Source: Microcaecilia unicolor
Lineage: Eukaryota
Reading direction: 5' to 3'
Assembly: GCF_901765095.1 (NCBI RefSeq)
Contig: NW_021963017.1
Span: 238,253-302,252 of the forward strand
DNA: 64,000 nucleotides
The translations under genes and the position numbers were made by a program. A model generated the notes under the pieces. The model had not been told where the DNA came from. It saw only the letters and a program-made list of their open reading frames with translations, and did no database searches. Within the stretch, counting starts at the first letter, position 1; the number at the start of each line of letters is the position of its first letter. This document shows positions 19,338 to 60,910 of this stretch, in pieces.

Positions 19338-21003
19338 GGCCCAGATGATCAAAAGCCCTGCGCTGTTCCAAACAGTGCCCTAAAAATAGCGCCGGGACAG
19401 CGCAGGGCTTTTCTGCATCGATGATCAAAGATAATGCATGCAAATCTAAGCAGCGCTATTATCTTTGATTATCATGTTGAAGTGTGGGAGAATTGCACCC
19501 GAGCACGTGCTCAGCACAATCCTCCTGCACTTCTTTGACAGGTCTGGGCTGTCAAAAGCCCAAAACTGTCAAAGTGGCCTGCCGATCCCCCAACAAAGAG
19601 GCCGCCGCCGGCCAAACCGACTCCCCCCCCCCCCCCCAGCGATGGGGGGGGGGGGGGCTGGAGGTCCAGTGGACCTCCGGTCCCCCCGACGACCCCCCCC
19701 CATGTTCACGGAGGGATGGAGATCCGGTGGTTCTCCAGCCCCCCCCCCACGAGCCCCCAGAGGACTTGATTGCCGGCTTTAGAGAAACGCTGCCCTACCC
19801 TCCCATCTGCAACCGGGGGGGGGGGGGGGGGCTGGAGGATCGGTGGGTCTCCAGCCCTCCAAATCCCCAGAAATCGTTGTGATCCACTGGACCTACAGCC
19901 CACCCCAACTCCCCCCCCCCCCGGCGTTCTCCACAAATCCCTGGTGGTCCGTGGTGACACGTAACCCCACCCTCCTCCCTCCCTCCCTCCCGGCCCCCCT
20001 ACCTTTGTTGGAGGAGGGACGCAGCCTGCATGCCTCCCTCCTCTTCCTTTCGACGCCGCTTCAAAATGGCGGCGCCCAGCCCCGCCCATTGCATCCTGGG
20101 ATGTGCTGGGAGGGGCTACATACCATATAAGGGAGCGATTCCCTTACATGGTATGTAGCCCTGCCCAGCGCATCCCAGGATGCAATGGGCGGGGCTGGGC
20201 GCCGCCATTTTGAAGCGACGTCGAAAGGAAGAGGAGGGAGGCATGCAGGCTGCGTCCCTCCTCCAACAAAAGGTAGGTGGGCCAGGAGGGAGGGAGGAGG
20301 GTGGGGTTACGTGTCACCACGGACCACCAGGGATTTGTGGAGAACGCGGGGGGGGGGAGGAGTTGGGGTGGACCTCCAGCCCCACCCCCCTCGTTGGTAG
20401 ATTACAGCCCTTGGCCGGAGGCGGCCACAAGGATTTCTTGGGGTTTGGGGGGCTGGAGGCCCACCGAACCTCCAGCCCCCCCCCCCCCCCCCCCCGGCGC
20501 TGGTGGGAGGGTGGGACAACGCTTGGCCGGAGGCGGCCACGAAGATTTCGGGGGGGTTCGGGGGAGGGTCGAATCGTCGAGGGGGGGGACCGGAGGTCCT
20601 CCGGACCTCCAGTCCCGTGTGCTGTTGCCTTGGGGGGGAACGGGGGCCTGCCAGCATGCAACTGAATGCTGGACAGGGCTCACCATTCCTCCCCAATGAT
20701 CCGCAAAATCTAACGCCAGCTCGGAGCTGGCGTTGATTTTGCTGCGGCCAGCGACCCAATCTTTGGCGCGCTGGTCGCTGATCATTGGGGATGAATGCGT
20801 TAAGCGCCAATTAGCATACGTTTGCAGGCTAATTGCGCTAGAAGCCCTGTTTTGCATGCATTTGCATGCTACTTGCGCTGAGAGCCCTCGAGTGCGCTGT
20901 TTCAGGCGCTCGAGGGCTCTGATCATGGGTCGGCTGCAAACTCTGGTGCTAGTATGGCGTTAACAGCCTCTAGCGCCAGAGTTTGCTTTTGATCATGAGG
21001 GCC
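19338..21003. mobile_element. Harbinger/PIF-like non-autonomous element (MITE) with ~1.2-kb internal palindrome
   Basis: TIRs ggcccagatgatcaaaagc (19338-) and gcttttgatcatgagggcc (-21003), flanked by a TAA/TAA direct repeat (19335-19337, 21004-21006). The interior is an imperfect palindrome centred near 20133 (arms ~19550-20130 and 20135-20700) with long poly-C/G tracts. ORFs 19706-20089(-) and 20185-20400(+) encode the same peptide, confirming the symmetry. Confidence 0.6.
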
Positions 21004-21439
21004 TAAGTGCTCATAATTTCAAGTGCATGTCCTGTGTAGCTCTGTGTGCACTGCACTGACCACACTAGGGGGTCATCAAGGCTTCCCCTTTCTCTATTAT
21101 CTGTAGTTCATTGTTAGGAGGTTCTTTCAGAAAGGCTGCCTGGAGTTAAAGATCAAACAGTTTAGGCAGGCCATCCTGCCTGCTTTGTGCATGCAAAGTC
21201 AGTGAAAATCAGGTAGTTGTGGATCAAAAACACCTCTGCCGCCAAGAATCTCTTTTGTTTAATGAACTCCTGTCAGTCCCCCCCCCCCCCCCCCCCCCGG
21301 ACACTTTCAGTCCCGCCTTTTACTTTAATTGCTTGCGGTCACAAATCCACCTGACTGAGAAGAAGGATTAACATATTCCCTAAGTGTCGGGATAAGCATA
21401 AAGGAATCCTGTGCCGAAGGAATGGATCCTCAGGAGCTT

Positions 21440-21745
21440 AGTCAGGATCGGGAGGCAGGGCTGGTGGTTGGGAGGCAGGGATAGTGCTGGACAGACTTGT
21501 ACGGTCTGTGCCAGAGCCGGTGGTGGGCAGCGGGACTGGTGGTTGGGAGGCGGGGATAGTGCTGGACAGACTTGTACGGTCTGTACCAGAGCCGGTGGTT
21601 GGGAGGCAGGGCTGATGGTTGGGAGGTGAGGATAGTGCTGGGCAGACTTATACGGTCTGTGCCAGAGCCGGTGGTTGGGAGGAGGGGCAGGTGGTTGGGA
21701 GGCGGGGATAGCGCTGGGCAGACTTATACGGTCTGAGCCCTGAAG
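21440..21745. repeat. tandem repeat, ~78-bp unit x ~4
   Basis: Repeating ggatagtgctggacagacttgtacggtctgtgccagagccggtggttgggaggc... units. ORFs 21380-21763(-) and 21411-21629(+) are translations of it. Confidence 0.6.
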
Positions 21746-22189
21746 AGCACAGGTACAAATCAAAGTAGGGTATACACAAAAAGCAGCAAATATGAGTTAT
21801 CTTGTTGGGCAGACTGGATGGACCGTGCAGGTCTTTTTCTGCCGTCATCTACTATGTTACTATGTAACAGCAATGATGCCTTAACTGAAAAGGTGAATAA
21901 ATAAATGTATAGCTATGTTGATGTAAATATGCTTGGGGGGGGGGGGGGTCGTTTTGTTTTTAATTCTTCAACAGGCATTTTTCAGTGGGCGATGTTCTTC
22001 TGCCACATGGTGATCGTGATCTACAGTTTAATTGCCCTGGAGAGGGGGAGGGGGAAGAGACTGCTGTGCTCCAGAGCTGGAAAAAAAGATGGGGGAAGAA
22101 AAGCTAATAATCATAAATACCTGGCTGGCTTGCCTTTGAGTGGCAGTGCAGGAGGCGCACAAACTTGCTCCAGCTGATCAGCTCCGTTC

Positions 22190-31562: not shown

Positions 31563-34500
31563 TTATAGTGAAGGGTATTTATATGTCAGCCACTCTGCCA
31601 GAATTACCTGCTTGGATACAATAATGGCCCTAGAGACAAAGGATGCAAATCCACACGGCATCGGGTGTCCCAACTTAGGCTGTCCAAACAAGAGTGCAGG
31701 GTCGTAATGCCAACCTGTCTTCCACAAGCTAGATATGTGAAGCATGATTGCTTTCCAAAAACTTGCAATGCCTTTACAGGACCAGAACATATGTCCTAGG
31801 GTCGCACCACTGGCTCCACACTTCAGACTTGACCCCTAAGGAGAAAGTCCCATATGAAATGCCGTTCGAGGAGATATATATAAACGGAGGACAAATTTGT
31901 ATTGTAACTTCCAGTGTAATGCCAATGGAGATAAACGCTGAATCGAAAGTATATGCGATTTAATTTGCGCTGCAGTGATGTTTACTTGTAAATCTCTTTG
32001 CCACAAAGACAACAATCTTGAATAATCCAACTCAGGTATTGAGTCCCGTGTATGCCTGTGATGAAAAGAAAGCAACACCTTATGCTGCACTTCTAAAGAG
32101 AAAGCAGATGAAAGTTCTTCTTGTATGTCTTCTGTCATTGACTCCCAAGGCAGCGATGATACATAATGCCACAGTTGAGCATAATGGAACTCATCAAAAT
32201 GTGGCAAGGCAAATTCTACTTGGAGACCTTGAAAAGTTTTTATACGATCTTCTTTGGAAACCACCTGTAGTAAGTACACAATACCTTGCTTCTTCCATCT
32301 GCGGAAGACAGAATACAGTTGTCCTGGTGCAAAGGCCGCATTATCACAAATTGCCAAATATGGTGTTACCTTTGCAGAAAAACGATGTAATTGGCAAATC
32401 CACCTCCTAACTGCTTTTGCAGACTTCATAATCAAAGAATGTTTTAACACATTTGGTATGGACTCACCGTTTGTGTGCAAATAACTACTGAAATGAACTC
32501 CCAGGGAGAGTTGTAACTCCATAGTTGTATTACAGTAATCTTGAGTGGCTCTAAACCAGTCATTAATATGCCTCATGCCACTGGCAATAGTAAGAAATCT
32601 TATGCTAAGTAATCCCAACCCCCCGTACTCCACCGGTATATATAAGGTTGATATGGGAAGACGAGCTTTCCTACCTTGCCAGAGAAAACACTGAACCAAT
32701 GTGTTCAGTTTCCTTTCATCCCCCCATTTCAAATACAAAGGTAGGATCTGAAAGACATAAAGCCATCTGGGGACAATAAACATATTGAATAATGCTATAC
32801 GTCCTAACAATGAAATAGGTAAGGAGCCCCATGCATGCAACCTCAATTTTGTCTCCTTTAATAACCACTGAATATTTTTTTCATATAACAAATTTAAATC
32901 TGCTGGAATGTGTACTCCAAAATATTTAATTGAGCCCTGTGCCCAGTTAAGGGGAAACTGTTCTCTCCAATTTATTTGCCTTCCTGTTAATACAGGAAGA
33001 GCAAAGGATTTATTTAAGTTCATCTTGAAACCAGAAATGTGCCCAAATTGCCTAATACTTGTAAGCAGCAACTCTAGTGATTGGGGTGGATTTGTCAATA
33101 TCAGTAATAAATCGTCAGCATAAGCCAGTCTTTGATACATTGATCTGCAAGAGAGATGCCCTCTATCCCCTTTGTAAGCGAGAGCATCCGGAGCAATGGC
33201 TCTAATGATATCACAAAAAATAAAGGAGAGAGGGGACATCCTTGCCTAGTGCTTCTTTCTATAATAAATTCTTTTTCTTTAATACCATTAATTAACACGC
33301 ATGCCTGAGGATGATAGTAGAGAGCTTGTATCGTTTGTAAAAACCAACCAGTAATTCCCATAGCAGCCATAGTCCTATCCCACCTGGTCAAAGGCCTTTT
33401 CTGCATCCCAGCTAACCACCAAGAATGGAACACCTTTATCTCTGCGAGATGCCATTGCCAGTAGTAAACGTCTGACATTATGCGCCGCTTGATGGTGTCA
33501 TACAAACCCCACCTGCTCAGATCCTATCAATTTTGGTAGACACTGTGCCAATCTTTCAGCCAATATTTTAGCTAACAACTTAATGTCTACATTTAGAAGC
33601 AATATCGGCCTATAGGAGTCTGCCTGCTCTGATGATTTACCCGACTTTGGTATTAAAGTTATCAACGCGGTATTAGCATAAATGGGAAATTTACCTTGTT
33701 ATATCACCTCCTCATAATATTCTAGCACGGAGGCCAGAACCGCTGGGGGTAAGGTCTTATAATAATCTCCTGTGAATCCATCAGGACCTGGAGCAGAATG
33801 AAATTTTAGCGACTTTACCGCTTTTTGCAACTCAGTTAACGATAGGGGTGCGTTCAAGCAGTCCAGATCTGCTAAGGACAGTGTAGGTAAACCTGAGCGC
33901 TTTAAATAATCCAATAGATTTCGCTCATGAGGTATCAACTCTGCTTTATATAGGGAGGAGAAATATTCTGTGAATAGCTCCCTATTTCCCCTTGATCACT
34001 TGTAAGCACTCCACGCTTGTCCCGTAGGGCTGCCACGGTCTGAGGCCATCCCCAATTCTTAATTAGTCGTGCAAGCATTCGTCCCGGTCTATTACCAAAC
34101 CTTTGCAATCTATACTTATAATAAAGAGATGACCTATGGGCATATTTTCAAAGCACTTTGGGAGGCTAAGTTCCATAGGTTTCTATGGAACTTTGGGAGG
34201 CTAAGTGCTTTGAAAATGAGCTTGCTAGTCTCTATTTTGTAAAATAGAGTATTGAGAGCTATTTGAGTGGCTTTTAAGTTCTCCAGAGTAGCCTTTGTAG
34301 GCCTTTGCACATGGGCCCGTTTAGCCCTTCGTAACTGTTTCTAAATGCAAAATACCTGCTGCTCTACGCTTTTTCTTCATACTACAAAATGCAATGCTGT
34401 CTCCCCGTATCACCACCTTCGATGCAGACCAAAATAATAGTGGCTGATTTTGAGCTTGTTCACCATTATTAGCCGCATTCTAAGCCCACCTTATATTTAT

Positions 34501-35222
34501 GTATTTCTGAAATTGAGGGTCTGTGTACAAGTAGGCTGGCTATTTCCTCCCTTTTCCACCCGGACTATCAGCAGGTATTTCTAGGTCCACCCACACTAGA
34601 GCATGGTCTGAAATTTCTTCGGGCCCTATGGTCTCTGCTAATGTCAGAGGAAACAAGGAACATTCCATCAAAATATAATCCAAACAGGCTTGTGTTCCAT
34701 GAGCCCTTGACTGGTGATTGTAATCTCGCTCACCCGGTTGCAGTGCCCTCCATACATCAACTAAGTTAAGAGATTTTGAGAGTATAGAGAACTCTCTGGT
34801 CCGTTGCCCTGAATAATGCAAAGAATTCGGGTTGGAACAGTCATAAACCGGGTCCGAAACTAAGTTAAAATCACCCAGTACCATCAACTTTGAGTTCTTA
34901 TGTGCAAGCAACATCCAACCAGCGATTTAAAAAAGACTGGGTCATAACAATTGAGACCATACAACACCACTAGCAGAAAGTCTATGCCTTGCAGCCATAC
35001 ATGTAAAATTATGTAATTCCCCTGTGTCCCTTTTGTCACCAAAGTAGCTTTATACGATAGCCCCTTTCGAAACAAAACTGCCATTCCCCCTTTCTGCCCC
35101 TGTGAGGCAGCCGCGTAAATCTCCCCTACCCAGGATCTCTGCAACTTAGCGTGTTCTAAATCCGTGAGACGTGTCTCTTGCAAACAAGCTATATCTGATT
35201 TATGGCGTTTTAATGCTGACAA
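31563..35222 (-). pseudogene. L1-like ORF2 (EN-RT-Cys knuckle), frameshifted
   Basis: See the parent element. ORFs 34884-35222, 34540-34914, 33699-33938, 33101-33505, 31836-33239 and 31563-31790 tile one ORF2 in shifting frames. Confidence 0.6.
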
Positions 35223-36597
35223 AATTTTAGAGTGCTTTATCGGGGAACTAATGCCCCCTACATTCCAAGATATTACTCATGTAGGCAAACGCTATTTAAA
35301 GAAACTAACATTGGTAAAGAGATATCCCCTATGCACATTCCTATCCCCTCCATTAAAACCTGTAAACATACATTCAGCAACATATTCATACAGATTCAAT
35401 GCAATTTTGACCCTTCTTGCCCAGGTTAACAGTACCCTCAACCCTTCTATTTCCCGAGAACTCCTCCCCCTTCCCATGTAACCATTGTAAATCCAGTACA
35501 GGTCCCCTCATCCTTCCTACCTTCCCTCCCCATTCCCCCCCAACCCTAAACTTAACCCAATCCATCTACCCAGGGAACAGACCTGGGGATGGAAGCAAAG
35601 ATCACATTAAGTGCTAGGGACCCCAACCTCCAAATGCAACTGCTTATAGGCTATGTCACCATAATACACTATGTTAAAGCAACTAGTAATATATTTACTC
35701 CTGTACCACACCAACAAATGCAACATGGATTAATCCGCATCAATCAATCTGTTGTTCAATAATGCTGATTTTGCCTCTGTTACAGTCTTGAAAGCTTGCC
35801 ATTGACCTTGAATTGAAACCCTTAATTGTGCTGGATATTGTAAAGCAAAATGAATTCTTTTATAAGAGCTGAGCAGAGAGGATGAAACTGTTGATGCTGC
35901 TTTGTGCGGGGGAGAAATCTTGTAAAATCATCAGTATGTTGCGCCCGTCGTGCATCAGTGAGTCTCTCTGTAATTTAAACCCTCGAAGAATTTCAACTTT
36001 ATGTCTGTAATTCAATATTTTTGCCATAATTACTCTTGGTCAGTTCTGATCCTCCTATCTGCGCCCGACGCAATGTGCCCTTTCCACCACTACCGGGCCC
36101 ATTGTGTCTGTAAGGGCCAATTCCTTAGCCAGCCAAGTCGCTAGGTTCCATTCAGGGAGTTTTTCTGTTAACCCCACTTTCTCCGAGGACAAGCAGGCTG
36201 CTTGTTCTCACTGATGGGTGACGTCCACGGCAGCCCCTCCAATCGGAATCTTCACTAGCAAAGTCCTTTGCTAGCCCTCGCGCGCCCGCGCGCATGCGCG
36301 GCCGTCTTCCCGCCCGAAACCGGCTCGAGCCGGCCAGTCTTCTTTCGTCCGCACTCGGTACGGTTGTGTTTTTCGCCGTGTCGAGCCCCGGAGAGTCGAC
36401 CTCGCGCGTCCTTTGTCTAATCGACGTGTTTTTTCTTCGGAAAATATTAGAATTCGTTCGGGAAGTGCTCCGGAAGCCCCCTTGGGTTTCGTTTTGCCCC
36501 TTCCCGTATTTTCAGTCTTTGCCCCGGTAAGTTTTCTTTCGTCGTCGGGGTAGGCCTCTTTTCGGCCTCGGTCGAGATTTTTCTCCCTCAAAGTTTT

Positions 36598-37722
36598 TTG
36601 GTGCTCATTTTCGTCATTTCGGATTTTGATTTCGCCGGCGTGATTTTTCCGCCCATGACATCGAAGCCTTCCAGCGGCTTCAAGAAGTGCACCCAGTGCG
36701 CCCGGGTTATCTCGCTCACTGACAGGCACGCGTCGTGTCTTCAGTGTCTGGGGGCCGAGCACCGCCCTCAGGCCTGTAGTCTGTGTTCCCTTTTGCAAAG
36801 GCGGACTCAGGTAGCGAGATTGGCCCAGTGGAACGTTTTGTTCTCGGGCTCTTCGTCGGCATCGGCACCGGGGGTATCGTGTACATCGACGTCTTCAGCG
36901 TCCAGAGCTTCATCCTCGGCCGCCAGTGCATCGAGTGCATCGAGGCATCGGCCCTCTGCATCGGCGCCGAGACATCGGATAGCTGCATCGACGTCGGTGG
37001 TACCGGGACCTCGTCTGCTGATGTCGTCGGACGGTGGTGCATCGTCAGGAGTGCAGGTGAGGGCTGTCCATTCCCCTGCTGGTGGCGGTGAGCCTTCGGG
37101 TGGGTCTCCCCCTACCCTGAGGGCTCCTGCGGTACAGCCCCCCCGAGACCGACCTCCTTCGGCCTCGGCCCCGAGGAAGCGACGGCTGGATTCTACGTCC
37201 TCCTCGTCGGTACCGGGAAGCTCCGGTGACATGCTTCGTTCCAAGAAGTTGAAGAAGCATCGTCACCGGTCCCCTTCCCGTGTCGGTACCGAGAGCTCTG
37301 GGTCGCCGAGGGAGTCGGCACCCAGCAGGCATCGGCACCGAGAGGACCGCTCACCCTCTGTTCAGGAGGTGTCGATGCGCTCCACTCTGGACAGCCCGGA
37401 ACAGCCTCCACGCCCGGAACAGGTTCTGACGTCGACGCCTGCATCAACCTCCATGCCTTTCTCTGCAGCCGCTCTGAACGAGAGCCTCCGGGCCGTTCTC
37501 CCAGAGATTCTGGGAGAGCTGTTGCGCCCTACCCCTCCGGTACCGGCGGTGCTTGCGCCACCGGTACCGTCGAGCGTGGCGCCGGCTGGCCCATCGCCCG
37601 AGGTGAGGTCTCCGGCGTCGGTGCTGCGTGCGGTGCCGGCTGCCGTCGCCTCCCAGGAGGGCTCCCCGACTACGTCGGCGGAGGGAGCTTCGCCGATGCG
37701 GGCGAGGGAGTCTACCTCTTGA
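36598..37722 (+). CDS. DIRS ORF1 (gag-like, Cys-rich N-terminus, Ser/Pro-rich)
   Basis: 374-aa ORF. KKCTQCARVISLTDRHASCLQCLGAEHRPQACSLCSLL resembles a zinc-knuckle arrangement. A second ORF at 37768-38904 may be its continuation or a separate ORF1b. Confidence 0.45.
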   Translation: MVLIFVISDFDFAGVIFPPMTSKPSSGFKKCTQCARVISLTDRHASCLQCLGAEHRPQACSLCSLLQRRTQVARLAQWNVLFSGSSSASAPGVSCTSTSSASRASSSAASASSASRHRPSASAPRHRIAASTSVVPGPRLLMSSDGGASSGVQVRAVHSPAGGGEPSGGSPPTLRAPAVQPPRDRPPSASAPRKRRLDSTSSSSVPGSSGDMLRSKKLKKHRHRSPSRVGTESSGSPRESAPSRHRHREDRSPSVQEVSMRSTLDSPEQPPRPEQVLTSTPASTSMPFSAAALNESLRAVLPEILGELLRPTPPVPAVLAPPVPSSVAPAGPSPEVRSPASVLRAVPAAVASQEGSPTTSAEGASPMRARESTS

Positions 37723-38848
37723 CGCCCCCATCGTGGACGTGGCTCCACGGAGTCGAGTTGGGCACGGTTGCAGACACAGGTCCGTGAACTTGTGTCTGAC
37801 ACCGAGGGTGAGGCCTCGTGGGAAGAGGAAGAAGACCCCAGATATTTCTCTGACGAGGAGTCTGAGGGTCTTCCTTCCGATCCTACTCCCTCTCCTGAAA
37901 GACAGCTTTCTCCTCCTGAGAGTCTGTCTTTCGCTTCCTTTGTCCGGGAGATGTCTACGGCCATCCCCTTCCCGGTGGTTGTGGAGGACGAGCCCAGGGC
38001 TGAAATGTTTGAGCTCCTGGACTATCCTTCTCCACCTAAGGAAGCGTCCACTGTTCCCTTGCACCATGTCCTGAAAAAGACATTGCTTGCGAACTGGACA
38101 AAACCATTAACTAACCCCCACATCCCCAAGAAGATCGAGTCCCAGTACCGGATCCATGGGGACCCAGATCTGATGCGCACTCAGTTGCCTCATGATTCTG
38201 GAGTTGTGGATCTGGCCCTAAAGAAGGCTAAGAGTTCTAGGGAGCATGCTTCGGCGCCCCCGGGCAAGGACTCTAGAATCTTAGACTCCTTTGGGAGGAA
38301 GGCCTACCATTCTTCTATGCTCGTGGCCAAAATTCAGTCTTACCAGCTCTACACGAGCATACACATGCGGAACAATGTGCGGCAGTTGGCGGGCTTGGTT
38401 GATGCTCTCCCCCCTGAGCAAGCCAAACCTTTTCAGGAGGTGGTCAGGCAGCTGAAGGCGTGCAGAAAATTCCTGGCCAGAGGGGTGTATGACACCTTTG
38501 ATGTTGCGTCCAGGGCCGCTGCTCAAGGTGTGGTGATGCGCAGGCTCTCATGGCTGCGTGCCTCCGACCTGGAGAATAGAATCCAGCAGCGGATTGCGGA
38601 CTCGCCTTGCCGTGCAGATAACATTTTTGGAGAGAAAGTCGAGCAGGTGGTAGAGCAGCTCCACCAGCGGGACACCGCATTCGACAAGTTCTCCCGCCGG
38701 CAGCCTTCAGCTTCTACCTCTACAGGTAGACGATTTTTCGGGGGAAGGAAGACTGTTCCCTACTCTTCTGGCAAGCGTAGGTACAATCCTCCTTCTCGAC
38801 AGCCTGCGGCCCAGGCTAAGCCCCAGCGCGCTCGCTCTCGTCAGCAGC

Positions 38849-40633
38849 GTGCGACTCAGCAAGGCCCCTCGGCTCCCCAGCAAAAGCAAGGGACGAGCTT
38901 TTGACTGGCTCCAGCAGAGCATAGCCGACATCCAAGTGTCAGTGCCGGGCGACCTGCCAGTCGGAGGGAGGTTGAAAGCTTTTCACCAAAGGTGGCCTCT
39001 CATAACCTCCGATCAGTGGGTTCTGCAAATAGTCCGGCAAGGATACACCCTCAATTTGGCCTCAAAACCTCCAAATTGTCCACCGGGAGCTCAGTCTTAC
39101 AGCTTCCAGCACAAGCAGGTACTTGCAGAGGAACTCTCCGCCCTTCTCAGCGCCAATGCGGTCGAGCCCGTGCCATCCGGGCAAGAAGGGCTGGGATTCT
39201 ATTCCAGGTACTTCCTTGTGGAAAAGAAAACAGGGGGGATGCGTCCCATCCTAGACCTAAGGGCCCTGAACAAATATCTGGTCAAAGAAAAGTTCAGGAT
39301 GCTTTCCCTGGGCACCCTACTTCCCATGATTCAGGAAAACGATTGGCTATGCTCTCTGGACTTGAAGGATGCCTACACACACATCCCGATACTGCCAGCT
39401 CACAGACAGTATCTGTGATTTCAGCTGGGCACACGTCACTTCCAGTACTGTGTGCTACCCTTTGGGCTCGCCTCTGCGCCCAGGGTGTTCACAAAGTGCT
39501 TGGCTGTAGTAGCAGCAGCACTTCGCAGGCTGGGAGTGCACGTGTTCCCATATCTCGACGATTGGCTGGTGAAGAACACGTCCGAGGCAGGAGCCCTGCA
39601 GATCACAGCTCGGCAGATGTTGAGATTGCTGGGCCACATGGCCTCCACAGTTCATGTGACTCCCATGGCCCGCCTTCACATGAGGTCTGCTCAATGGACC
39701 CTAGCTTCCCAGTGGTTTCAGGCTGCTGGGGATCTAGAAGACGTGATCCACCTGTCCACGAGTTTTCTCGAATCCCTGTATTGGTGGACGATTTGGTCCA
39801 ATTTGACTCTGGGACATCCTTTCCAAATTCCTCAGCCACAAAAAGTGCTGACCACGGATGCGTCTCTCCTGGGATGGGGAGCTCATGTCGATGGGCTTCA
39901 CACCCAAGGAAGCTGGTCCCTCCAGGAACGCGATCTACAGATCAATCTTCTGGAGTTGCGAGCGATCTGGAACGCTCTGAAGGCTTTCAGAGATCGGCTG
40001 TCCCACCAAATTATCCAAATTCAGACAGACAACCAGGTTGCCATGTACTACGTCAACAAGCAGGGGGGCACTGGATCTCGCCCCCTGTGTCAGGAAGCCG
40101 TCAGCATGTGGCTCTGGGCTCGCCGTCACGGCATGGTGCTCCAAGCCACATATCTGGCAGGCGTAAACAACAGTCTGGCCAACAGGTTGAGCAGGATTAT
40201 GCAACCTCACGAGTGGTCGCTCAACTCCCGAGTGGTGCGCCAGATCTTCCAAGCGTGGGGCACCCCCTTGGTGGATCTCTTCGCATCTCGAGCCAACCAC
40301 AAAGTCCCTCAGTTCTGTTCCAGGCTTCAGGCCCACGGCAGACTGGCATCGGATGCCTTCCTCCTGGATTGGGGGGAGGGCCTGCTGTATGCTTATCCTC
40401 CCATACCTCTGGTGGGGAAGACTTTGTTGAAACTCAAGCAAGACCGAGGCACCATGATTCTGATTGCTCCTTTTTGGCCGCGTCAGATCTGGTTCCCTCT
40501 TCTTCTGGAGTTATCCTCCGAAGAACCGTGGAGATTGGAGTGTTTTCCGACCCTCATCACGCAGGACGAAGGGGCTCTTCTGCATCCCAGCCTCCGGTCC
40601 CTGGCTCTCACGGCCTGGATGTTGAGAGCGTAG
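38849..40633 (+). pseudogene. DIRS pol (RT-RNaseH-MT-like) with a single in-frame stop
   Basis: YSRYFLVEKKTGGMRPILDLRALNKYL, DLKDAYTHIPI, VLPFGLASAPRVFTK, FPYLDDWLV (RT), then a TDASLLGWGA RNase H and a methyltransferase-like region. The TGA at 39416-39418 is the only interruption (HRQYL*FQLGTRHFQY). Confidence 0.75.
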
Positions 40634-41669
40634 ACTTTGCCTCTTTGGGTCTGTCAGAGGGTGTCTCCCGCATCTTGCTTGCTTCCAGGAAAGATTCCAC
40701 TAAGAGGAGTTACTTCTTTCTGTGGAGGAGGTTTGCCGTCTGGTGTGACAGCAAGGCCCTAGATCCTCGCTCTTGTCCTACACAGACCCTGCTTGAATAC
40801 CTTCTGCACTTGTCTGAGTCTGGCCTCAAGACCAACTCTGTAAGGGTTCACCTTAGTGCAATCAGTGCATACCATTACCATATGGAAGGTAAGCCGATCT
40901 CAGGACAGCCTTTAGTTGTTTGCTTCATGAGAGGTTTGCTTTTGTCAAAGCCCCCTGTCAAGCCTCCTACAGTGTCATGGGATCTCAATGTCGTTCTCAC
41001 CCAGCTGATGAAACCTCCTTTTGAGCCACTGAACTCCTGCCATCTGAAGTACTTGACCTGGAAGGTCATTTTCTTGGTGGCAGTTACTTCAGCTCGTAGA
41101 GTCAGTGAGCTTCAGGCCCTGGTAGCCCAGGCCCCTTACACCAAATTTCATCATAACAGAGTAGTCCTCCGCACTCACCCTAAGTTCCTGCCAAAGGTCG
41201 TGTCGGAGTTCCATCTGAACCAGTCAATTGTCTTGCCAACATTTTTTCCCCGTCCTCATTCCTGCCCTGCTGAACGTCGCTGCACACATTGGACTGCAAG
41301 AGAGCATTGGCCTTCTATCTGGAGCGGACACAGCCCAACAGACAGTCCGCCCAATTGTTTGTTTCTTTTGATCCCAATAGGAGGGGAGTGGCTGTGGGGA
41401 AACGCACCATATCCAATTGGCTAGCAGATTGCATTTCCTTCACTTACGCCCAGGCGGGGCTGGCTCTTGAGGGTCATGTCACGGCTCATAATGTTAGAGC
41501 CATGGCTGCGTCGGTAGCCCACTTGAAGTCAGCCTCCATTGAAGAAATTTGCAAAGCTGCGACGTGGTCATCTGTCCACACATTCACATCTCATTACTGC
41601 CTGCAGCAGGATACCCGACGCGACAGTCGGTTCGGGCAGTCAGTTCTTCAGAACCTGTTTGGGCTTTAG
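40560..41669 (+). pseudogene. DIRS tyrosine recombinase (YR), one frameshift
   Basis: SLGLSEGVSRILLASRKDSTKRSYFFLWRRF..., ...FLVAVTSARRVSELQAL..., then the C-terminal ...EEICKAATWSSVHTFTSHYCL in the frame of ORF 41289-41669. Only the C-terminal ~270 aa of the 810-aa ORF 38992-41424 is genuine coding; the N-terminal part is an out-of-frame overlap with pol. Confidence 0.65.
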
Positions 41670-42754
41670 GATCCAACTCCACCCCCCGAGGGCCCTGTTT
41701 GTTCTGTTCCAGGCTGCACTCTCAGTTAGTTGGTAAATTTTTTTAGGTCAATCTCAGTTATGTCCTCGCCGTTGCGAGGCCCAATTGACCATGGTTGTTG
41801 TTTTGAGTGAGCCTGGGGGCTAGGGATACCCCATCAGTGAGAACAAGCAGCCTGCTTGTCCTCGGAGAAAGCGAATGCTACATACCTGTAGAAGGTATTC
41901 TCCGAGGACAGCAGGCTGATTGTTCTCACAAACCCGCCCGCCTCCCCTTTGGAGTTGTGTCTTCCCTTCTCTTGTCTTGCTACATATGAAACTGGCCGGC
42001 TCGAGCCGGTTTCGGGCGGGAAGACGGCCGCGCATGTGCGGTGCGCGCAGGCGCGCGAGGGCTAGCAAAGGACTTTGCTAGTGAAGATTCCGATTGGAGG
42101 GGCTGCCGTGGACGTCACCCATCAGTGAGAACAATCAGCCTGCTGTCCTCGGAGAATACCTTCGGTATACGCAAGTTGTTCCTGTGGGAGCGGTTTTCAA
42201 GATCTTCCAGTTTGTTCATTTGTTCCTTTAGCTGCTGATTTAGACACACTATGTCTGGGCCGTACACGTGGGAGTCATCCTCCAGAGCCGAAACCCTGGC
42301 TTCTAAGTCCCCCGTGCGGGTCCCCAAACCGTCCAGCATCGTTTGAAACAAATCCAGTTTTTGATCCATCATTTCCCACTTCTGCTCCCAGGCTTTCTCT
42401 ACTGCCGATGTTAGCTGCAGGAGCTGGGTGTCAGTAAAGGCCGGTGGCGGCAAGGGAGGATCCTTCGCCATGTTGGCCTCCACACTGCCAGGCTTACTTT
42501 TTTCTTTAACAGCCTTATGCGCATCCCAGCAGGCAATTTGTTCAAATGTTTGTCCATAAAGAAATGTCCCACCACCATCCAGCACCAAACAAAGATATAG
42601 TGCAGCAGTTAAGATGATATGGATGCGAGGGCCCCAGAGCTTCAGCAAGATGCTGCTGTTCAGCTCATAGCAGCACGTGATGTTCTGCATATTTTATAAA
42701 ATACACATGTACATTACAATTTCAGCTCCTCTTCATTCCAAACTATGCCTGCGA

Positions 42755-47927: not shown

Positions 47928-48230
47928 AATACTAGTAAAAAAGCCCCGTTTCTGATGCAAATGAAACGGGGGCTAGCGATGTTTTCTTCTGTGTGCATGT
48001 GGGAGTGTGTGTGTCCCTGCCCTCTGGCCTCTCTCCCCTCCCCCCTCTGAGTCCTTCACTGTTACAGAGCCAGCGATTTGATTTCGTGCTCTGCTGTTTT
48101 CCTTCACTGACTGTGTTACAGAGAGGGCGGGGCAGACACTCATAGGGAAACCGGATATCTCGCCCCCTTCACACTTCCGGCTGGAGGCTTCATAGAACGT
48201 TGGTGTTGCTTTTTATATAGAGAGATTTTA
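47928..48230 (+). repeat. unclassified interspersed repeat with 5' hairpin (copy 2)
   Basis: tactagtaaaaaag + ccccgtttctgatgcaaatgaaacgggg + gctagcgatgtt + a GT-rich stretch + gagggcggggcagaca, paralleling 6081-6730. Confidence 0.4.
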
Positions 48231-48324
48231 TGGTGATGCTGTTTTATCATTACACTATATGTTGCCTATGTTGTTTTTATTATCATTATTATTTTGTAAT
48301 TATTATTATTATTCTCATTTTTAT

Positions 48325-49780
48325 GCCACTATCCAGCTTGTTTCCGAAAGAGAAAGACGCCCATATTTCGACCCTAATCGGGAGATGGGCGTCTTTCTCC
48401 CGTTTGCGACCAAATCGGTATAATCGAAAGCTGATTTGGGGCGTCTTCAACTGCACTCCGTTGCAGGAACGACCAAAGTTGACGGGGGCGTGTCGGAGGT
48501 GTGGTAAAGGCGGGACTGGGGCGTGGTTATCGGCCGAGGAGAGATGGCCGCCTTCGGCCAATAATCGAAAAAAGAAAGGCGGTTTTACTGCAATTTTGGG
48601 TCACTTTTTTTGGACCCTTTTTTTTCATGAACAAGTCCCAAAAAAGTGCCCCAACTGCCCAGATGACCACTGGAGGGAATCGGGGATGACCTCCCCGGGC
48701 TCCCCCAGTGGTCACTAACCCCCTCCCACCAAAAAAAAAGAACTTGAAAAACCTTTTTTTCCAGCCTGTATGGCAGCCTCAAATGTCATACCCAGCTCCA
48801 TGACAGCAGTATGCAGGTCCCTGGAGCAATTGTTAGTGGGTGCAGTGGACTTCACCCAGGTGGGCACAGGCCCATCCCCCCCTACCTGTTCGAACTTGTG
48901 GTGGTAAATGGGAGCCTACCAGACCGCCCCCAAAACCCACTGTACCCACATATAGGTGCTCCCCATCACCCCTTAGGGCTATGGTAATGATGTAGAGTTG
49001 TGGGCAGTGAGTTTTGGGGGGGATTTGAGGGGCTCAGCACCCAAAGGAAGGGAGCTATGGACTTGGGAGGTATTTTACTTTTGTTTTTATGCTTTACAAG
49101 TGCCCCCTAGGGTGCCCAGTTGCTGTCCTGGCATGTGAGGGCAGTGGCGTTCCAAGGGGCGCTGACACCCGGGGCAGATCGCCGATGCGCCCCGCCCCCC
49201 CGGGTGCAGTGCCCCCCCCCCCGTGCAGCGCCCCCCCCCCCCCCGGCGAAGGGACACCCCCCCCACCCCGGTGAAAGAACCCCCCCCCCGGTGCACGCCG
49301 CTGGTCAGCGTCGTTCGTTTCCATGCTCCCTCTGCCCCGGAACAGGTTACTTCCTGTTCTGGGGCAGAGGGAGCATGGAAACCAACGACGCTGACCGGCG
49401 CGTGGCACCCCCCCCAGCGGCGTGCACCCGGGGCAGACCGCCCCCACTGCCTCTCCTTGGTACGCCACTGTGTGAGGGGGACCAGTGCACTACAAATCCT
49501 GGCCCCTCCCACGACCCAATGCCTTGGATTTGATTGTTTTTGAGCTGGGCGCCTTCGGTTTCCATTATCGCTGAAAAACGATACTGCCCAGCTCAAATCC
49601 GCACAAATTTGATGCATTTGGCCGGCACAAACTGTACTATCGAAAAAAAAGATGGACGTACATTTTGTTCAAAAATACGGTCTGTCCCGCCTCTTCACGT
49701 ACCCGTTTTCGGACATAGACACCCATGGAGATGGGCGTTCGCGTTCGATTATGCCCCTCCACATGCTTTATTACTAGACC
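48325..49780 (+). repeat. ~1.1-kb interspersed repeat, copy A (carries a nested hAT-like MITE)
   Basis: Colinear homology to copy B (50630-51722) from ..cagcttgtttccgaaagagaaagacgcccat.. to ..cgattatgcccctccacat. ORFs 48289-48561(-) and 50587-50874(-) are homologous pseudo-peptides. It is interrupted at 49142-49470. Confidence 0.6.
49142..49470. mobile_element. hAT-like MITE (329 bp) nested in repeat copy A
   Basis: TIRs cagtggcgttccaagg / ccttggtacgccactg. The 8-bp TSD tgtgaggg is present at 49134-49141 and 49471-49478. The insertion is absent from the orthologous site in copy B (ggcatgtgagggggaccagtg at ~51410). It contains a 40-bp-stem hairpin at 49308-49395 and poly-C tracts. Confidence 0.65.
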
Positions 49781-50134
49781 CCTGAGGCAGGCGTTATGTA
49801 ACGCCGAAACACGACCCATGTTGGGTCACTTATTAATAGAGGACTCCTGTTGTCTCAGTCTTGAAGGCCCAGTTTTGCTTTTTTTGTTCGTATTCATATA
49901 TGTAGCAATGGTGTACTCCCTACTGGATGCTTGTTTGTTTATTTATTAGGATTTATTTACTGCCTTTTTGATGTACCAAGGTCGTGTGAACAAGAAATGT
50001 AAAGTTTCTGACCAAACCACCATGTGGTTTAGGATAATGAAATATACTGACAGTTCATATGTCTGTTACCTAAGTCATGATACTCATTCAGCAAAGGCAA
50101 AAATATATTTCTTCTTCATGCTATTCATATTTAG

Positions 50135-51722: not shown

Positions 51723-51906
51723 CACTCGCTATTAGATCTTTTAGATATTATCTAATATTTAGTAAAAAAAAAAAAACTGAAAACTTTTCTTTTCCAGAAA
51801 TATAGATGGGCAGATACTGATTGATTATTATTTTTTTTTTTTAATTATCAACTTTATTTAACTAATTTAATTGAGTTATTGTAACTCCAGACGTAATGAC
51901 CTGATA

Positions 51907-53500
<1,594 letters not shown>

Positions 53501-54294
53501 ATCTTGGTTCTGTGATCCACCTTAGTTGTAATGTAATATAATGTAAAGTATTTGGCTGCACAATTTTATTAAGAACCATTCTGCATATGTAAGACACATT
53601 TTACATGTGGAAAAAAAAGCTTTATAAAATTATCAAGGCTGCACGTCAATCACAATTAATGTAATATATATTGACAGCAATTAAAAATATTAGTCACAGT
53701 TAATAAAATTAAGCTCCCGGGGTACCTTTTCTTCTCCCTGCATGGCCACCATTACTTTCTCCTTCTCTTTCTCTTCTTGTTGCAGCCTGCATTGCTTTCA
53801 TTGGCTGTTTAGCCCGGGAGTGCCTGATTGGCTCTTTGCCCAGTAAGCCAAAGAGGAGTGTCACTATTGGGGAGAGTGCTGAATATCAGCAGGTGCTCCC
53901 TCCCCTCTGCTTGCTGCTGCTGCTGCCTGCCTGCCCACTCCCCTGCCGATGCTTGCCTTCATGTTTGCCCACCTGCCTGCCAGTGCTTGCCTGCCTACTG
54001 CTGCTGCTGCTGACTACCTGCCTTCTAGTGCCTGCCTGCTGCCTGTCTCCACTGGTAAGTACTAGGCATGTGGGCCTCCTCATGGCCACCCTGCTGCAGT
54101 CTTGTATCCTTTCTGCCCCCTGCTGCAGTCTCTCATCCTTTCCGGGTTCCCCCACACCACAGTCCAGCATCCTTTCTGATCCCCCTCCTCCTCCCCCCTC
54201 TGTCTCAATCCTGCATCTTCTCAGGGACCCCTCCCCCCACCTCCTCTAGACTGCTCCCTGCCTGCATACCTGAATGGTGCCTCAGGCATACAGG

Positions 54295-57100: not shown

Positions 57101-57149
57101 ATACACCTGCAAGGTGATTGAGGTCTGAGGGGGCAGTATTGTTATCCAT

Positions 57150-59750
57150 CCCTAATTTGGCTAGGGTACGTTTTGAGGAGGCTCGGAAGAGTTCCTTATG
57201 TTTGGCAAGACCTGTGATATACAATCGGCTGTTCCATAGCGTCCCACAGATCAATCCAGAGACTTGTGGGTTGCGTCCCTCTACCAGCAGGTTGGAATTG
57301 GTTCGTCCGATAGTAGACTCGTTTCTGGAATCTCCTTGCAAATCTCCCGCCAAGGTGTGGGCAGTTCGTCACACCCTCCTCAACTTACAACAACTGGGAG
57401 CTGTCCAGCCTGTACTCCCAGCAGAAAGAGGGTGCGGTCGATACTCCATTTATTTTGTGATGCCAAAAAAGGGCGGTTCTTGGCGACCTGTCCTAGATCT
57501 CAAGTGCTTCAACAGGTCCTTATGGGTTCGGCATTTCCGCATGGAAACCCTCCGCTCGGTGATCGCAGCGGTACAGCCAGGAGAGTTTTTGACATCTCTC
57601 GATCTCAAAGAGGCCTATTTACACATTCCAATTTGGCCTCTCCACAGTCGTTTTCTTCGCTTTGCAGTGCTCTGTCGTCATTTTCAATTCAAAGCGATGC
57701 CCTTCGGCCTAGCCACAGCACTTTGGACTTTTGGAAAAGTCCTTTCTGAGATAGGCCGCCACTTCGACAAGGACCTTGGAAAAAGTGGCGGCCTATCTCA
57801 GAAAGGAAGGGATTCAAGTCCATCCTTATCTAGATGACTGGCTTGTGCGGGCGTCTTCTTTCGAGGAGATTCAATGGGCAACCAACAGAGTGGTCAGGTT
57901 GCTTCAGTTGCTTGGTTGCGTGATCAACTTCCCAAAGTGCAGCCTTACGCCTTCCCAGACGCTGGAATACTTGGGAGTGTACTTCGATACCCGAACAGAG
58001 ATAGTTTCTCTTCCTTCAGCTTGAGCGCAGCGGTTGCAGGGTCAGTTGCGAGCTCTGTTCCAAACTCCGAACCCGCAGACTTGGGACTATGTACAAGTTC
58101 TGGGTTCCATGGCCTTCACCTTGGACGTCGTAAAGTGGGCCAGAGCTCACATGCGCCCCCTGCAGTGGCACCTTCTGAGCCATTGGTCTCCTCTCTGGGA
58201 GGATTACGAGGTTCAGGTGCCATATTCGACCCGTCTGCACACAATCATGCACTTGTGGTTCATTCAAAAGAATCTGGTGTCGGGCATTTTTCTGCAAACC
58301 CCAGAATGGAAGATCGTGACCACAGATGCGTTGTTGTCTGTTTGGGGGGCTCATTGCCTCCAACAGACGGCCTAGGGCATTTGGACCTCGACGGAGGCGT
58401 CTTGGTCCATCAACCGCTTGGAGTTGTAGGCGATTCGTCTGGCCCTTCGGGAGTTACTGTCTCTTCTGCGTGGTTGCCCAGTTCGAGTTCTCTCGGATAA
58501 TGTGACGGCGGTCGCCTACGTAAACCGTCGGGGACACCGGGTGTGCACCACTAGCTTGCGATGCAGCCCTGATTTGCCATTGGGCAGAGACTCATCTCTC
58601 TCTCTTGACGGCGGCTCATATAGCGGGGTAGAGAATATGCAAGCGGACTTTCTCAGTCGCCACCAGTTGGAGCCGGGGGAGTGGACACTCTTCCCTCTGG
58701 CCTTAGATCAGATAGCTTCACGTTGGGGGATGCCGGTGATGGACTTAATGGCCACCACATTCAATGCAAAGTTTCCCCGTTTCTTCAGCAGAGGAAGATA
58801 GCTGGGCTCAGAAGGCATCCATGCTCTTCTACAACCTTAGCCCAGGGGCCTGCTCTATGCCTTTTCCTCTGGCCTATAGTGGGCAGGTTACTGACTCACA
58901 TTGCCAGTCATTCCGGTCAAGTGATCCTGGTGGCCCCAGATTGGCCCAAACGTCCCTGGTAAGTTGATATGGTCAGGCTCCTGTTCGATCGTCCGCTCCG
59001 GCTCCAGGCGCAGGATGGTCTCTTGCTGCAGGGACCAGTCATGATGGAGGATCCCTCCCCCTTTGGTCTTACGGCCTGGCCCTTGAAAGGGCGAAGTTGA
59101 GAAGGAAAGGATATCTGGATGTGGTTATCGCTACGAAGCTTCAGGCTCGGAAAAGATCCACCTCGATAGCTTATGCTAGGGTGTGGCATACTTTCGATTC
59201 ATTGTGTGCAAGTTCGGGATTGTCAACGGCTTTGGCTTCGGTATCGGTTATCCTCGTATTTCTTCAGGATGGTGTACAGAAATCATTCTCATTGAGTTCT
59301 CTTAAGGTGCAGGTGGCAGCTCTGGCATGCTTTAGAGGCCAACTTCAGGGGGTGTCGATCGCCTCCCACCCGGATGTGGTTCGTTTTTTGAGGGGCGTAA
59401 ATTGGTTGCGTCCTCCGCATGTGCCAGTTCTGCCATCCTGGAACCTTAATCTAGTTCTCAAAGCGCTTCAGCGTCCTCCTTTCGAACCCTTATGGGGATT
59501 ACGGTTAAGGATTTTACCTTGAAGGCAATTTTCCTAGTAGCCGTTACTTCAGCTCGGAGAATTTCAGAGTTGCAGGCTCTTTCTTGCAGAGACCCCTTCC
59601 TGCGTTTTACAGAGGCAGGAGTATCGATTAGGACAGTTCTTTCGTTTTTGCCCAAGGTGGTTTCTTGTTTCCATTTGGGGCAGTCTCTGTATTTGCCGAC
59701 TTTTCGCCGGGAAGACGTGGGATGTACCCAAGTAGTCCTCAAGTAGGGCG
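57150..59750 (+). mobile_element. DIRS-like retrotransposon copy 2 (gag-less, frameshifted, 3'-truncated)
   Basis: RT (57118-57837: YSIYFVMPKKGGSWRPVLDLKCF, LDLKEAYLHIPIW, AMPFGLATALWTF; 57776-58024: HPYLDDWLV), RNase H (58034-58375: TTDALLSVWGAH), a methyltransferase-like region (58502-58962), the YR N-terminal domain (59097-59522) and the YR core (59492-59746: FLVAVTSARRISELQAL) occur in several frames. No ITRs were identified. Confidence 0.7.
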
Positions 59751-59756
59751 GGACAC

Positions 59757-60060
59757 CCCCAACCCGGCAGAAATCACCGACTAGCCAAACACCGCATCCT
59801 GCCGAGCTGCCACATCCACCCGATAATGATTAGTGAACGTATGGACCGAAGCCCATGTAGCGGCTCTGCAGATATCTTCCAGAGAAACCAAACAGGACTC
59901 TGCATAGAAGGAAACCTGAGCTCGCGTAGAATGAGCACGAATTTGCGCAGGGGCTCGCTTGCCCAATGCCATGTAGGCCAGTGATGGCCTCCCTCACCCA
60001 ATGGGCTATGGTGACCTCGGAAGCCATATGACCCTTCTTACTGCCTCAAAAAAGGACGAA
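59757..60060 (-). mobile_element. inverted DIRS YR C-terminal fragment abutting copy 2
   Basis: Minus ORFs 59830-60027 and 59781-59972 encode ...IAHWVREAITGLHGIGQ... and ...EDICRAATWASVHTFTNHYRVDVAARQDAVFG, homologous to the copy-1 YR C-terminus (WLADCISFTYAQAG...EEICKAATWSSVHTFTSHYCL). Confidence 0.6.
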
Positions 60061-60910
60061 GAGATGGTCAGAGAGACAAAAGTTATTCGTCACCTCTAAT
60101 CCAGAGCCCCCTACCCAGATTTACTGTCTGCAGTTTTGTTTTGGTTGGTTAGTTTTTTCGGATTTCGTTGTTCTGAATGTTCCTTCATTTGATTAAATAA
60201 GAAAAACAAATAAATTTGGAAGTGGTGGAAGTATGTTGGGCATTTGGTCTGACAATGTCAGGAGAGTTTTCTATTGTTTCCATTCCACTGCTTTGGTATC
60301 GTTCATACTGAGGTTTACTTGGTTGCACAGGTCCACATATAGCAAATCTCTGAGGTTCTCTCTGTCTCCACCTGCTGGTAGAGGGACACAACCCACAAGT
60401 CTCTGGATTGATCTGTTGGGAGTAATGGAAAGAAAATGATCAGGTAAGAATTAATTTTTCCCTACTGTTTCGGAGACATGACATTATTTAAGATGCATCT
60501 TCAAGGGCTACCTTTTTCCTGATATTTGACCACCAAATGAAGGGGGGGCAGGATGATTGACAATCTGGTGACAGATGTGCATATTTGTGTCTTAGAGGGG
60601 AAGATCCCCTTTGTAGAGTAGGGAGGTTGATGGGGGAAGGTGTTTGTTTTATGTGTTTTTTTATTGTGAAATGTTTTGGATGGAAGCAGACAATAAATGT
60701 TTAAAACCATTACTGAAAAACCTGAATAAAGTTATTGGCCATTTACAGCATGTTCTTCATGTTCAGTGTCTTGTTGATACTTGATAATATTGAACTTGAG
60801 TGTAATATATTTGTGCATCTAGGAGTGTGATCATCATATGATATAAAAATTTCGGTAGCGGAGTTTTTCACTGAGGACCAGCATGACAGCTAGTTCTCCT
60901 TCCATTTCAG

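Follow-up and report, generated by a model that had tools for sequence, protein, structure and literature searches.

DIRS1-like elements and the copy in Microcaecilia unicolor

DIRS1-like elements are defined by inverted terminal repeats (ITRs), two internal complementary regions (ICRs) whose overlap forms a 3-bp circular junction, a right extension and the lack of a target-site duplication (PMC3266345). In vertebrates the left ICR (lICR) comprises 39-43 nt, the right ICR (rICR) 58-65 nt and the right extension 26-34 nt (PMC3266345), and a "long ORF overlap" (ORF, open reading frame) has been described for about half of the DIRS1-like elements. According to the Cappello model, transcription gives rise to an RNA of less than full element length, which is translated into gag, reverse transcriptase-RNase H-methyltransferase (RT-RH-MT) and tyrosine recombinase (YR), and reverse-transcribed to a single-stranded cDNA, whose missing termini are then rebuilt via annealing to the ICR, which contains the complements of both ends, leading to an end-to-end junction (PMC3266345, PMC7192593). 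The ICR is indispensable for the steps that follow first-strand synthesis (PMC7192593, PMC3266345), and for DIRS-1 of Dictyostelium, the founding member, it was shown to be essential for retrotransposition (PMC7192593). Recombination between the 3-bp junction and the target is thought to be carried out by the YR and to leave no target-site duplication (PMC7192593, PMC3266345). Here we describe an element at positions 36177-42165 of a 64,000-nt stretch of the Microcaecilia unicolor genome (assembly GCF_901765095.1, contig NW_021963017.1, positions 238,253-302,252 of the forward strand), which is referred to as the window and in whose numbering coordinates are given unless another contig is named. 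With high confidence it can be assigned to the DIRS1-like (DIRS order) tyrosine-recombinase retrotransposons of the sarcopterygian/tetrapod type, inserted antisense in ORF1 of an older, already decaying L1. The copy is genuine but defective and fairly young, and is an ordinary representative of a well-described superfamily. It is more damaged than a preliminary description of the locus had held, and it is not autonomous because of a nonsense codon and a deletion of ~65 codons in RT, an Asp to Asn exchange in RNase H, a nonsense codon in gag and a frameshift in YR. At least five lesions are disabling or probably disabling, namely two TGA codons, one frameshift, the RT deletion, the RNase H exchange and a right terminus that is ~19-22 nt shorter than predicted from the ICR.

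Terminal repeats and internal complementary region

The termini and the ICR are as follows.
36177-36338, plus strand: left terminus, with the left ITR at 36179-36338; first nucleotide of the element 36177 (CTT) or 36178 (TTT), within an overall ambiguity of 36175-36178
41830-41929, plus strand: ICR, consisting of the lICR (41830-41871), 19 nt without a partner (41872-41890) and the complement of the right end (41891-41929)
41991-42165, plus strand: right terminus, with the right ITR at 41991-42156, a 7-nt remnant of the right extension at 42157-42163 (TACCTTC) and GG of ambiguous origin at 42164-42165

Repeat finding and self-BLAST show that the two ITRs (160 and 166 nt) are inverted and 94% identical over 167 columns, with two substitutions and two indels, of 1 nt and of 7 nt, between them. 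The inverted ITRs of ~160 bp that had been noticed before are thereby confirmed as 36179-36338 and 41991-42156, but the boundaries proposed for the element, 36181 and 42154, have to be replaced by about 36177/8 and 42164/5. The lICR matches the reverse complement of 36177-36218 over 42 nt (BLAST E 2.5e-15) and 41891-41929 that of 42125-42163 over 39 nt (BLAST E 1e-13), in both cases with 100% identity. At the A indel and at a C/A substitution, which distinguish the ITRs, either ICR half matches the variant of its own terminus and the cross-combinations are 95% identical, as expected if each end was templated on the ICR; this terminus-specific identity, found here in one copy, fits the ICR-templating model. 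Since its halves are mutually inverted, the ICR by itself folds as a long hairpin (-41 kcal/mol, z -12.3). The preliminary description had placed at ~41826-41935 an ICR in which the complements of the left start and the right end are juxtaposed. The complementarity is indeed exact, but the halves lie 19 nt apart, and together with a right extension of 7 nt this means that the architecture is not canonical in detail.

The 19-nt stretch between the halves, CGAATGCTACATACCTGTA, has a partner at neither terminus. If the rICR is read as contiguous, it spans 41869-41929 (61 nt) and predicts a right extension of 29 nt, TACCTTCTACAGGTATGTAGCATTCGCTT, i.e. TACCTTC-TACAGGTATGTAGCATTCG-CTT. In the genome the right extension consists of TACCTTC only, followed by L1 sequence apart from the ambiguous GG. 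The lICR ends with AAG or AAA, matching the CTT or TTT at the start of the element, and the right terminus falls 19-22 nt short of the junction. It is therefore probable that the right extension of this copy is missing its final ~19-22 nt, since both the contiguous 61-nt rICR and the 29-nt extension fall within the vertebrate range and the copy thus appears truncated at its right.

For comparison we used two turtle copies, an intact one of Gopherus flavomarginatus (L003, 3449-9572) and one of Pelodiscus sinensis (L001, CM112014.1, 3342-9484). In Gopherus an lICR of 41 nt and an rICR of 63 nt abut with a 2-nt overlap as called, and in Pelodiscus an lICR of 43 nt and an rICR of 70 nt overlap on the 3 bp GAA, whereas the halves in the window are separated. 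The Pelodiscus element has TTC at start and end and a right extension of ~36 nt; the right extensions of the turtle copies are complete (~36-45 nt), compared to 7 nt in the window copy. These data bear on the idea that the 19-nt stretch is a normal spacer of this family, which is looped out during end restoration, and that the termini are complete. Such a spacer would lie within the loop of the ICR hairpin, it would agree with the precision of the left end and of the target, and there is a single copy to judge from. However, the ICR halves abut or overlap in both turtle relatives and in the published description (PMC3266345), and the right extension would be only 7 nt compared to 26-34 nt in other vertebrates, while the 61/29-nt reading is in range. 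We consider a family spacer unlikely and favor a truncated right end.

A motif, ACAGGTATGTA / ACAGGGTGAGTA / AAAGGTGAGTA, is common to the right extensions (ICR-predicted at 41872-41890 in the window, observed at 9449-9484 in L001 and 9535-9572 in L003). It resembles a 5' splice site and is located within a short inverted repeat. A conserved hairpin, as proposed for a self-primer, was sought in the three right extensions, but the folds are weak (z -2.3, -2.0 and -0.1).

Coding regions

Three overlapping or adjacent ORFs make up the coding part of the element.
36655-38904, plus strand: gag-like ORF in frame 0, with the ATG at 36655, an in-frame TGA at 37720-37722 and the terminal TGA at 38902-38904
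38654-40633, plus strand: pol ORF in frame +1 relative to gag, with RT at ~39218-39604 (YLDD at 39551), RNase H at ~39845-40200 and an MT/Dam-like segment at ~40217-40630
38905-41669, plus strand: YR ORF, a long frame-0 ORF overlapping pol, with the YR domain at ~40624-41666 and the stop at 41667-41669

The raw split ORFs gave only sub-threshold Pfam matches, and joining across stop and frameshift was needed. After joining, RT matches RVT_1 with 60.2 bits (cut-off 29.6) and YR matches Phage_int_SAM_4 with 27.8 bits (cut-off 27). As RT, YR, inverted termini and ICR were all detected, the earlier assignment of the locus to a DIRS-like YR retrotransposon with ITR/ICR architecture holds. A profile of 34 pol sequences matches the RT-RNaseH structures of Ty3 and caulimovirus (E ~1e-36), and the alignment with the Ty3 RT/RH structure of the PDB runs on through the RNase H domain. 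For RNase H itself the window copy reaches 21.7 bits with Pfam RT_RNaseH (cut-off 24.8), a model that is matched by 30 of the 34 homologs. The sole Pfam match of the MT segment is Dam (PF05869; E 0.095, sub-threshold), which is found in 17 of the 34 aligned pol homologs with a best E of 9e-4, and the window pol aligns with its homologs up to the C-terminus, including the DLFA motif. The assignments of RNase H, MT and the YR catalytic domain rest on the profiles and the homologs, because the window copy's own Pfam scores fall below threshold. An ATG upstream of the RT domain was not found in the pol frame.

Previously, pol had been regarded as nearly complete with a single TGA. This TGA is present at 39416-39418 (context TAT CTG TGA TTT, compatible with CGA>TGA at a CpG), but it is accompanied by two further lesions. 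First, RT has an in-frame deletion of ~65 codons (~195 nt) at ~39598/39599, after ...NTSEAGAL, leaving 14 residues in a region that has 78-80 in 33/33 homologs. The deleted segment carried the conserved G..N..KS...P......G positions, each common to 32-33 of the 33 homologs, and due to its loss the RVT_1 match is confined to model positions 1-168 of 205. The deletion preserves both of the overlapping reading frames. Second, the RNase H Asp of all 33 homologs is replaced by Asn at 40181-40183. Other pol changes at sites conserved in at least 90% of the homologs are H347Q, H418Y and K85A.

The YR is co-oriented with pol and located 3' of it. Its catalytic residues are present in the window copy, namely R (ARRVSEL, 41092), K, HxxR (41487), W and Y (SHY, 41589), which correspond to the columns R159, K191, H289, R292, W315 and Y325 that are invariant in 24 sequences. 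The profile of these 24 sequences matches Cre/Tre with an E of 3e-9. At positions conserved in at least 90% of the homologs the YR differs by S290N and one D-to-Q exchange. As described before, the YR has one frameshift, a shift by 1 nt near 41275-41282 that leads from frame 0 to frame 2, and the repaired protein aligns without gaps to the Pelodiscus DIRS YR (47% identity, E 2e-102). The frame-0 ORF at 38905-41421 (839 codons) overlaps the whole pol, which is far beyond chance length, and has counterparts of 990 codons in Gopherus and 769 codons in Pelodiscus. Both turtle DIRS1-like copies share the ORF layout of the window copy, in which gag and YR share a frame, pol lies in +1 and the overlap is long. 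In Gopherus the YR-frame ORF follows in the gag frame after one stop, and unlike the window copy it has no stops, no frameshift and no RT deletion.

Gag carries the Cys/His motif GFKKCxxC...CLxCLG.EH at its N-terminus and a LAP2alpha-like domain at its C-terminus (Pfam LAP2alpha, E 6.7e-5, weak). Both halves are homologous to ORF1 of the Pelodiscus DIRS element (E 5e-13 and 6e-8). Since the intact gag of Gopherus is one uninterrupted ORF of 810 codons, we count the TGA at 37720 as a lesion. For the same reason it was ruled out that this stop is a conserved readthrough site, for which it could have been taken as Pelodiscus also has one in its gag. Comparison of gag with a long ORF of the ENA contig L002 was uninformative, and ITRs were not detectable in L002. 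DIRS gag is regarded as the origin of LAP2alpha, and the weak Pfam match fits a DIRS gag. TMPO/LAP2alpha is reported to have arisen through co-option of a transposable element (PMC4495291).

With the domains at hand, it can be asked if the element belongs to another class, i.e. Ngaro, PAT-like, Crypton or long terminal repeat (LTR; Ty3/gypsy) retrotransposons. The RT and RNase H are related to Ty3/gypsy, and a YR is also found in Ngaro, PAT and Crypton elements. However, the repeats are inverted and not direct or split direct (A1-B1...B2-A2..., as in Ngaro and PAT-like elements), and long direct terminal repeats were not found. An ICR is present, and probably so is an MT-like domain, which separates DIRS1/PAT from Ngaro/VIPER and is lacking in Ngaro; a DDE integrase was not found, and the presence of RT excludes Crypton. 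Membership in any of these classes is thus hardly conceivable.

Host L1 and insertion site

On either side of the element lie the two parts of its host.
42166-42700, minus strand: upstream part of the host L1, with the N-terminal coiled coil of ORF1, ending with ...LEDLENRSHRNNLRI at the insertion point
31566-36176, minus strand: downstream part of the host L1, with the rest of ORF1 (VGLTEKLPEW...) and ORF2 (APE endonuclease ~34540-35276, RT ~31839-33700), carrying multiple frameshifts and stops

Both flanks belong to one minus-strand L1 that runs from ~42700 down to ~31566 with many frameshifts. L1-superfamily LINEs are characterised by an ORF1 with a coiled coil and the RRM motif RNNLR-x-G-x-P-E and an ORF2 with APE endonuclease and RT, a pattern with which this host agrees. 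Its ORF2 matches Pfam Exo_endo_phos (E 6e-11), fragments of RVT_1 and human LINE-1 ORF2p in the PDB (E 5.6e-24), while the Pfam ORF1 model gave no match on the host L1 ORF1. On the left flank ORF1 resumes as (V)GLTEKLPEWNLATWLAKELALTD, so that it reads NNLRI-x-GLTEKLPEW across the insertion, the NNLRI codons beginning at 42166. The joined ORF1 aligns without gaps to human L1 ORF1p across the junction, in a match that is weak (E 0.26). A word-indexed search with ORF1 was empty and an exhaustive HMMER search gave 20 ORF1 matches, of which the closest reads ...RRSNLRLVGLPETIPEKSL..EWLVKEFALSD. The motif R.N[LIVM]R[LIVMF] is present in 13 of the 20, and all 13 have exactly one residue before the G-x-P-E-like position. 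Because these homologs keep the same one-residue spacing as the joined host ORF, the insertion can be described as a net 5988 bp without target-site duplication and without net loss of target. In agreement with this, no repeat is common to TTAACCCCA(C) and (GG)TATACGCAAG on the two flanks, and one codon is kept between RI and GLTE. The placement of the boundaries can vary by up to 3 nt (36175-36178 for the start, 42162-42165 for the end); the single L1 codon may be GTG, CTG or CCG.

Nesting in L1 ORF1 without target-site duplication, as proposed in the preliminary description, is hence supported. The same description had ORF1 split as NNLRIPKVF. ORF1 is in fact interrupted after NNLRI, but PKVF is encoded by 42154-42165 and originates from the right end of the element and not from L1, since the ICR matches 42154-42163. 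Two other ways to place the right junction were considered, a canonical CTT trinucleotide shared with the target and a deletion of the complete extension by CTTC microhomology. They need 5 or 2 extra bases in the conserved L1 motif. Both scenarios are not supported by the 13 motif-bearing homologs and are less likely, a judgement which comes from hand reasoning and is not decisive.

Age of the copy and its relatives

The conserved part of the ITRs (120 nt) contains one substitution (CCG/CTG) and the 7-nt indel, and the pairs of terminus and ICR (81 nt) contain none, which makes one substitution in ~201 nt. The observed/expected ratio of CpG is 0.71 for the element and about 1.0 for the ITRs and 5' gag, compared to 0.41 for the rest of the window and 0.43 for the L1. 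Taken together with the changes in conserved codons, this gives a rough Poisson estimate of at most about 1% divergence since insertion. It points to a fairly young insertion, later than the host L1, from which current activity does not follow.

The preliminary description had gone further and regarded the copy as near-intact and canonical with only two lesions, TGA and frameshift, implying very recent activity of the family. Both of these lesions are real, the termini and the ICR are almost undiverged and the CpG content is kept. Near-intactness is contradicted, though, by the RT segment that is kept in 33/33 homologs and deleted here, by the RNase H exchange, by the TGA in a gag that is a single ORF in Gopherus, and by a right end shorter than the ICR predicts. 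Moreover, siblings were not found: blastn of the element against the 64-kb window returned self-matches only, protein databases contained no near-identical relatives (closest 49% identity for pol and 56% for YR), metagenome contigs contained 0 exact matches to a 21-mer from the ICR spacer, and exact-sequence look-ups of four window ORFs gave no match in the collection searched. A near-intact copy is therefore very unlikely.

Another question is when the damage arose. The RT deletion and some of the substitutions may predate the insertion, so that the copy would belong to a non-autonomous lineage of deletion derivatives, mobilised in trans by autonomous relatives, which is compatible with a defective DIRS1-like copy as described here. 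The deletion is in-frame in both overlapping frames, six substitutions at conserved sites are somewhat above what the near-identical termini let expect (a rough estimate), and the RT of DIRS-1 acts in trans (PMC7192593). On the other hand, there is no second copy with the same deletion, and the small numbers also fit about 1% of decay after insertion. We consider such a lineage as possible, but rather unlikely.

Three points weigh against our assignment of a defective DIRS1-like copy. It is based on one copy, without siblings or a family consensus, and the loss of the RT segment, the stop codons and the short right terminus may be post-insertion or inherited from the source. Besides RNase H and MT, the YR catalytic domain of the window copy is also sub-threshold in Pfam (E 0.014). 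Finally, the right end stops before the 3-bp circular junction, so that the junction is not confirmable in this copy.

A second, divergent DIRS-like remnant is located at 57118-60430 of the window, with 32-54% amino acid identity to the main element and in a rearranged form. On the plus strand it contains RT (from about aa 142), RNase H, MT and the YR N-terminus, whereas the catalytic C-terminal half of YR lies on the minus strand at 59754-60099 due to a local inversion. The remnant has a 61-nt inverted repeat (57232-57292 / 60370-60430); gag was not detected in it.

Possible route of integration

The window copy may well have arisen through the Cappello-type pathway. Its short right end would then result from integration of an incompletely restored intermediate or another non-canonical joining, or from a later small terminal deletion. 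Taken together, the junctions combine a precise left end, a right extension that is 19-22 nt short, a filler of ~2 nt that is unassigned and a target without net loss or gain. It is conceivable, though we regard it as improbable, that they record a non-canonical integration, with the related possibility of an RT-deleted non-autonomous DIRS lineage propagated in trans. Such an integration could have started from a linear or prematurely closed cDNA with a right end only partly rebuilt on the ICR, or could have occurred by recombination at a shortened junction. If true, the copy would be a footprint, left naturally in a vertebrate, that bears on the question of linear versus circular intermediates raised for Dictyostelium DIRS-1 (PMC7192593). 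If the short right end recurs in siblings, it would inform how the ends of vertebrate DIRS cDNA get completed and integrated. The copy itself, if transcribed, could presumably move only in trans, and its ICR could in principle regenerate the missing right extension. The truncated right extension combined with the precise target is the only mildly unusual feature of the copy. In annotation, masking of the region as a defective DIRS1-like copy within a dead L1 is appropriate, and it should not be treated as an active element or as genes.

Other features of the window

Besides the DIRS-like sequences and the L1, the window harbors an apparently intact Tc1/Sleeping-Beauty-like DNA transposon at 51903-53503 with the termini CAGTGG...CCACTG. 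A 204-nt inverted match with 100% complementarity comprises terminal inverted repeats of ~202 bp plus a flanking TA on each side, and an internal repeat of the IR/DR type, GGAAATAAGTATTTGATCCC, is present. The transposase ORF is uninterrupted (340 aa; ATG at 52262, stop at 53284) and matches Pfam HTH_SB, HTH_Tnp_Tc3_2 and DDE_3. Judged from these features, this transposon looks younger and likelier to be active than the DIRS copy. An ORF of 296 aa at 3968-4855 (Pfam DDE_1, E 2.6e-48) is a fragment of a pogo/Tigger-type transposase. Two GC-rich blocks at 20001-22000 and 48001-50000 (0.56 and 0.53, respectively) contain overlapping ORFs of 160-176 aa on both strands without a Pfam match and may represent further repeats or sequence resembling CpG islands. 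Nothing was found when the window was scanned with Rfam and for tRNAs.

Comparison with known systems

In databases the closest proteins to pol are 39-49% identical and come from Pelodiscus, Pleurodeles and Pogona, and those closest to YR reach up to 56% and come from Latimeria, followed by salamanders, a caecilian and turtles. Because of these closest relatives, the family is placed among the sarcopterygian/tetrapod DIRS1-like elements. Compared to any database relative the window copy has at most 56% identity at the protein level. In public genomes, ORFs of DIRS pol and YR carry the names of host genes, as whose isoforms X1 they are annotated (Pelodiscus L001, CM112014.1; database matches P0002, P0134 and P0157). 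The names are those of DNA repair protein RAD51 homolog 2, of inositol hexakisphosphate kinase 3 and of protein-glutamate O-methyltransferase. In the RAD51 case at least, a DIRS insertion in an intron was absorbed into the gene model.

The window copy resembles the vertebrate DIRS1-like elements of Piednoel et al. 2011 (PMC3266345), e.g. AcDIRS1 and AcDIRS2 of Anolis and XtDIRS2/3 of Xenopus, in its length of ~6 kb, the start with CTT/TTT and the AAG/AAA at the ICR junction. It also shares with them ITRs of ~120-170 nt, an lICR of ~40 nt and an rICR of ~60 nt, an extension at the right only, the long overlap of the YR and pol ORFs and the lack of a target-site duplication. Its ICR of 42/61 nt and the predicted right extension of 29 nt are inside the published vertebrate ranges (PMC3266345), whereas the right extension that is actually present, 7 nt instead of 26-34 nt, and the internal RT deletion set it apart from them. 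The likeness to DIRS-1 of Dictyostelium (PMC7192593) consists of ITRs, an ICR complementary to both termini, and the coding for gag, RT-RH-MT (the MT part being putative in the window copy) and YR. In contrast, DIRS-1 has a different ORF arrangement, ITRs of ~300 nt, a contiguous ICR of 88 nt and a distant sequence (PMC7192593). Furthermore, the mechanism of DIRS-1 was tested experimentally (PMC7192593), whereas the copy in M. unicolor is known from its sequence.

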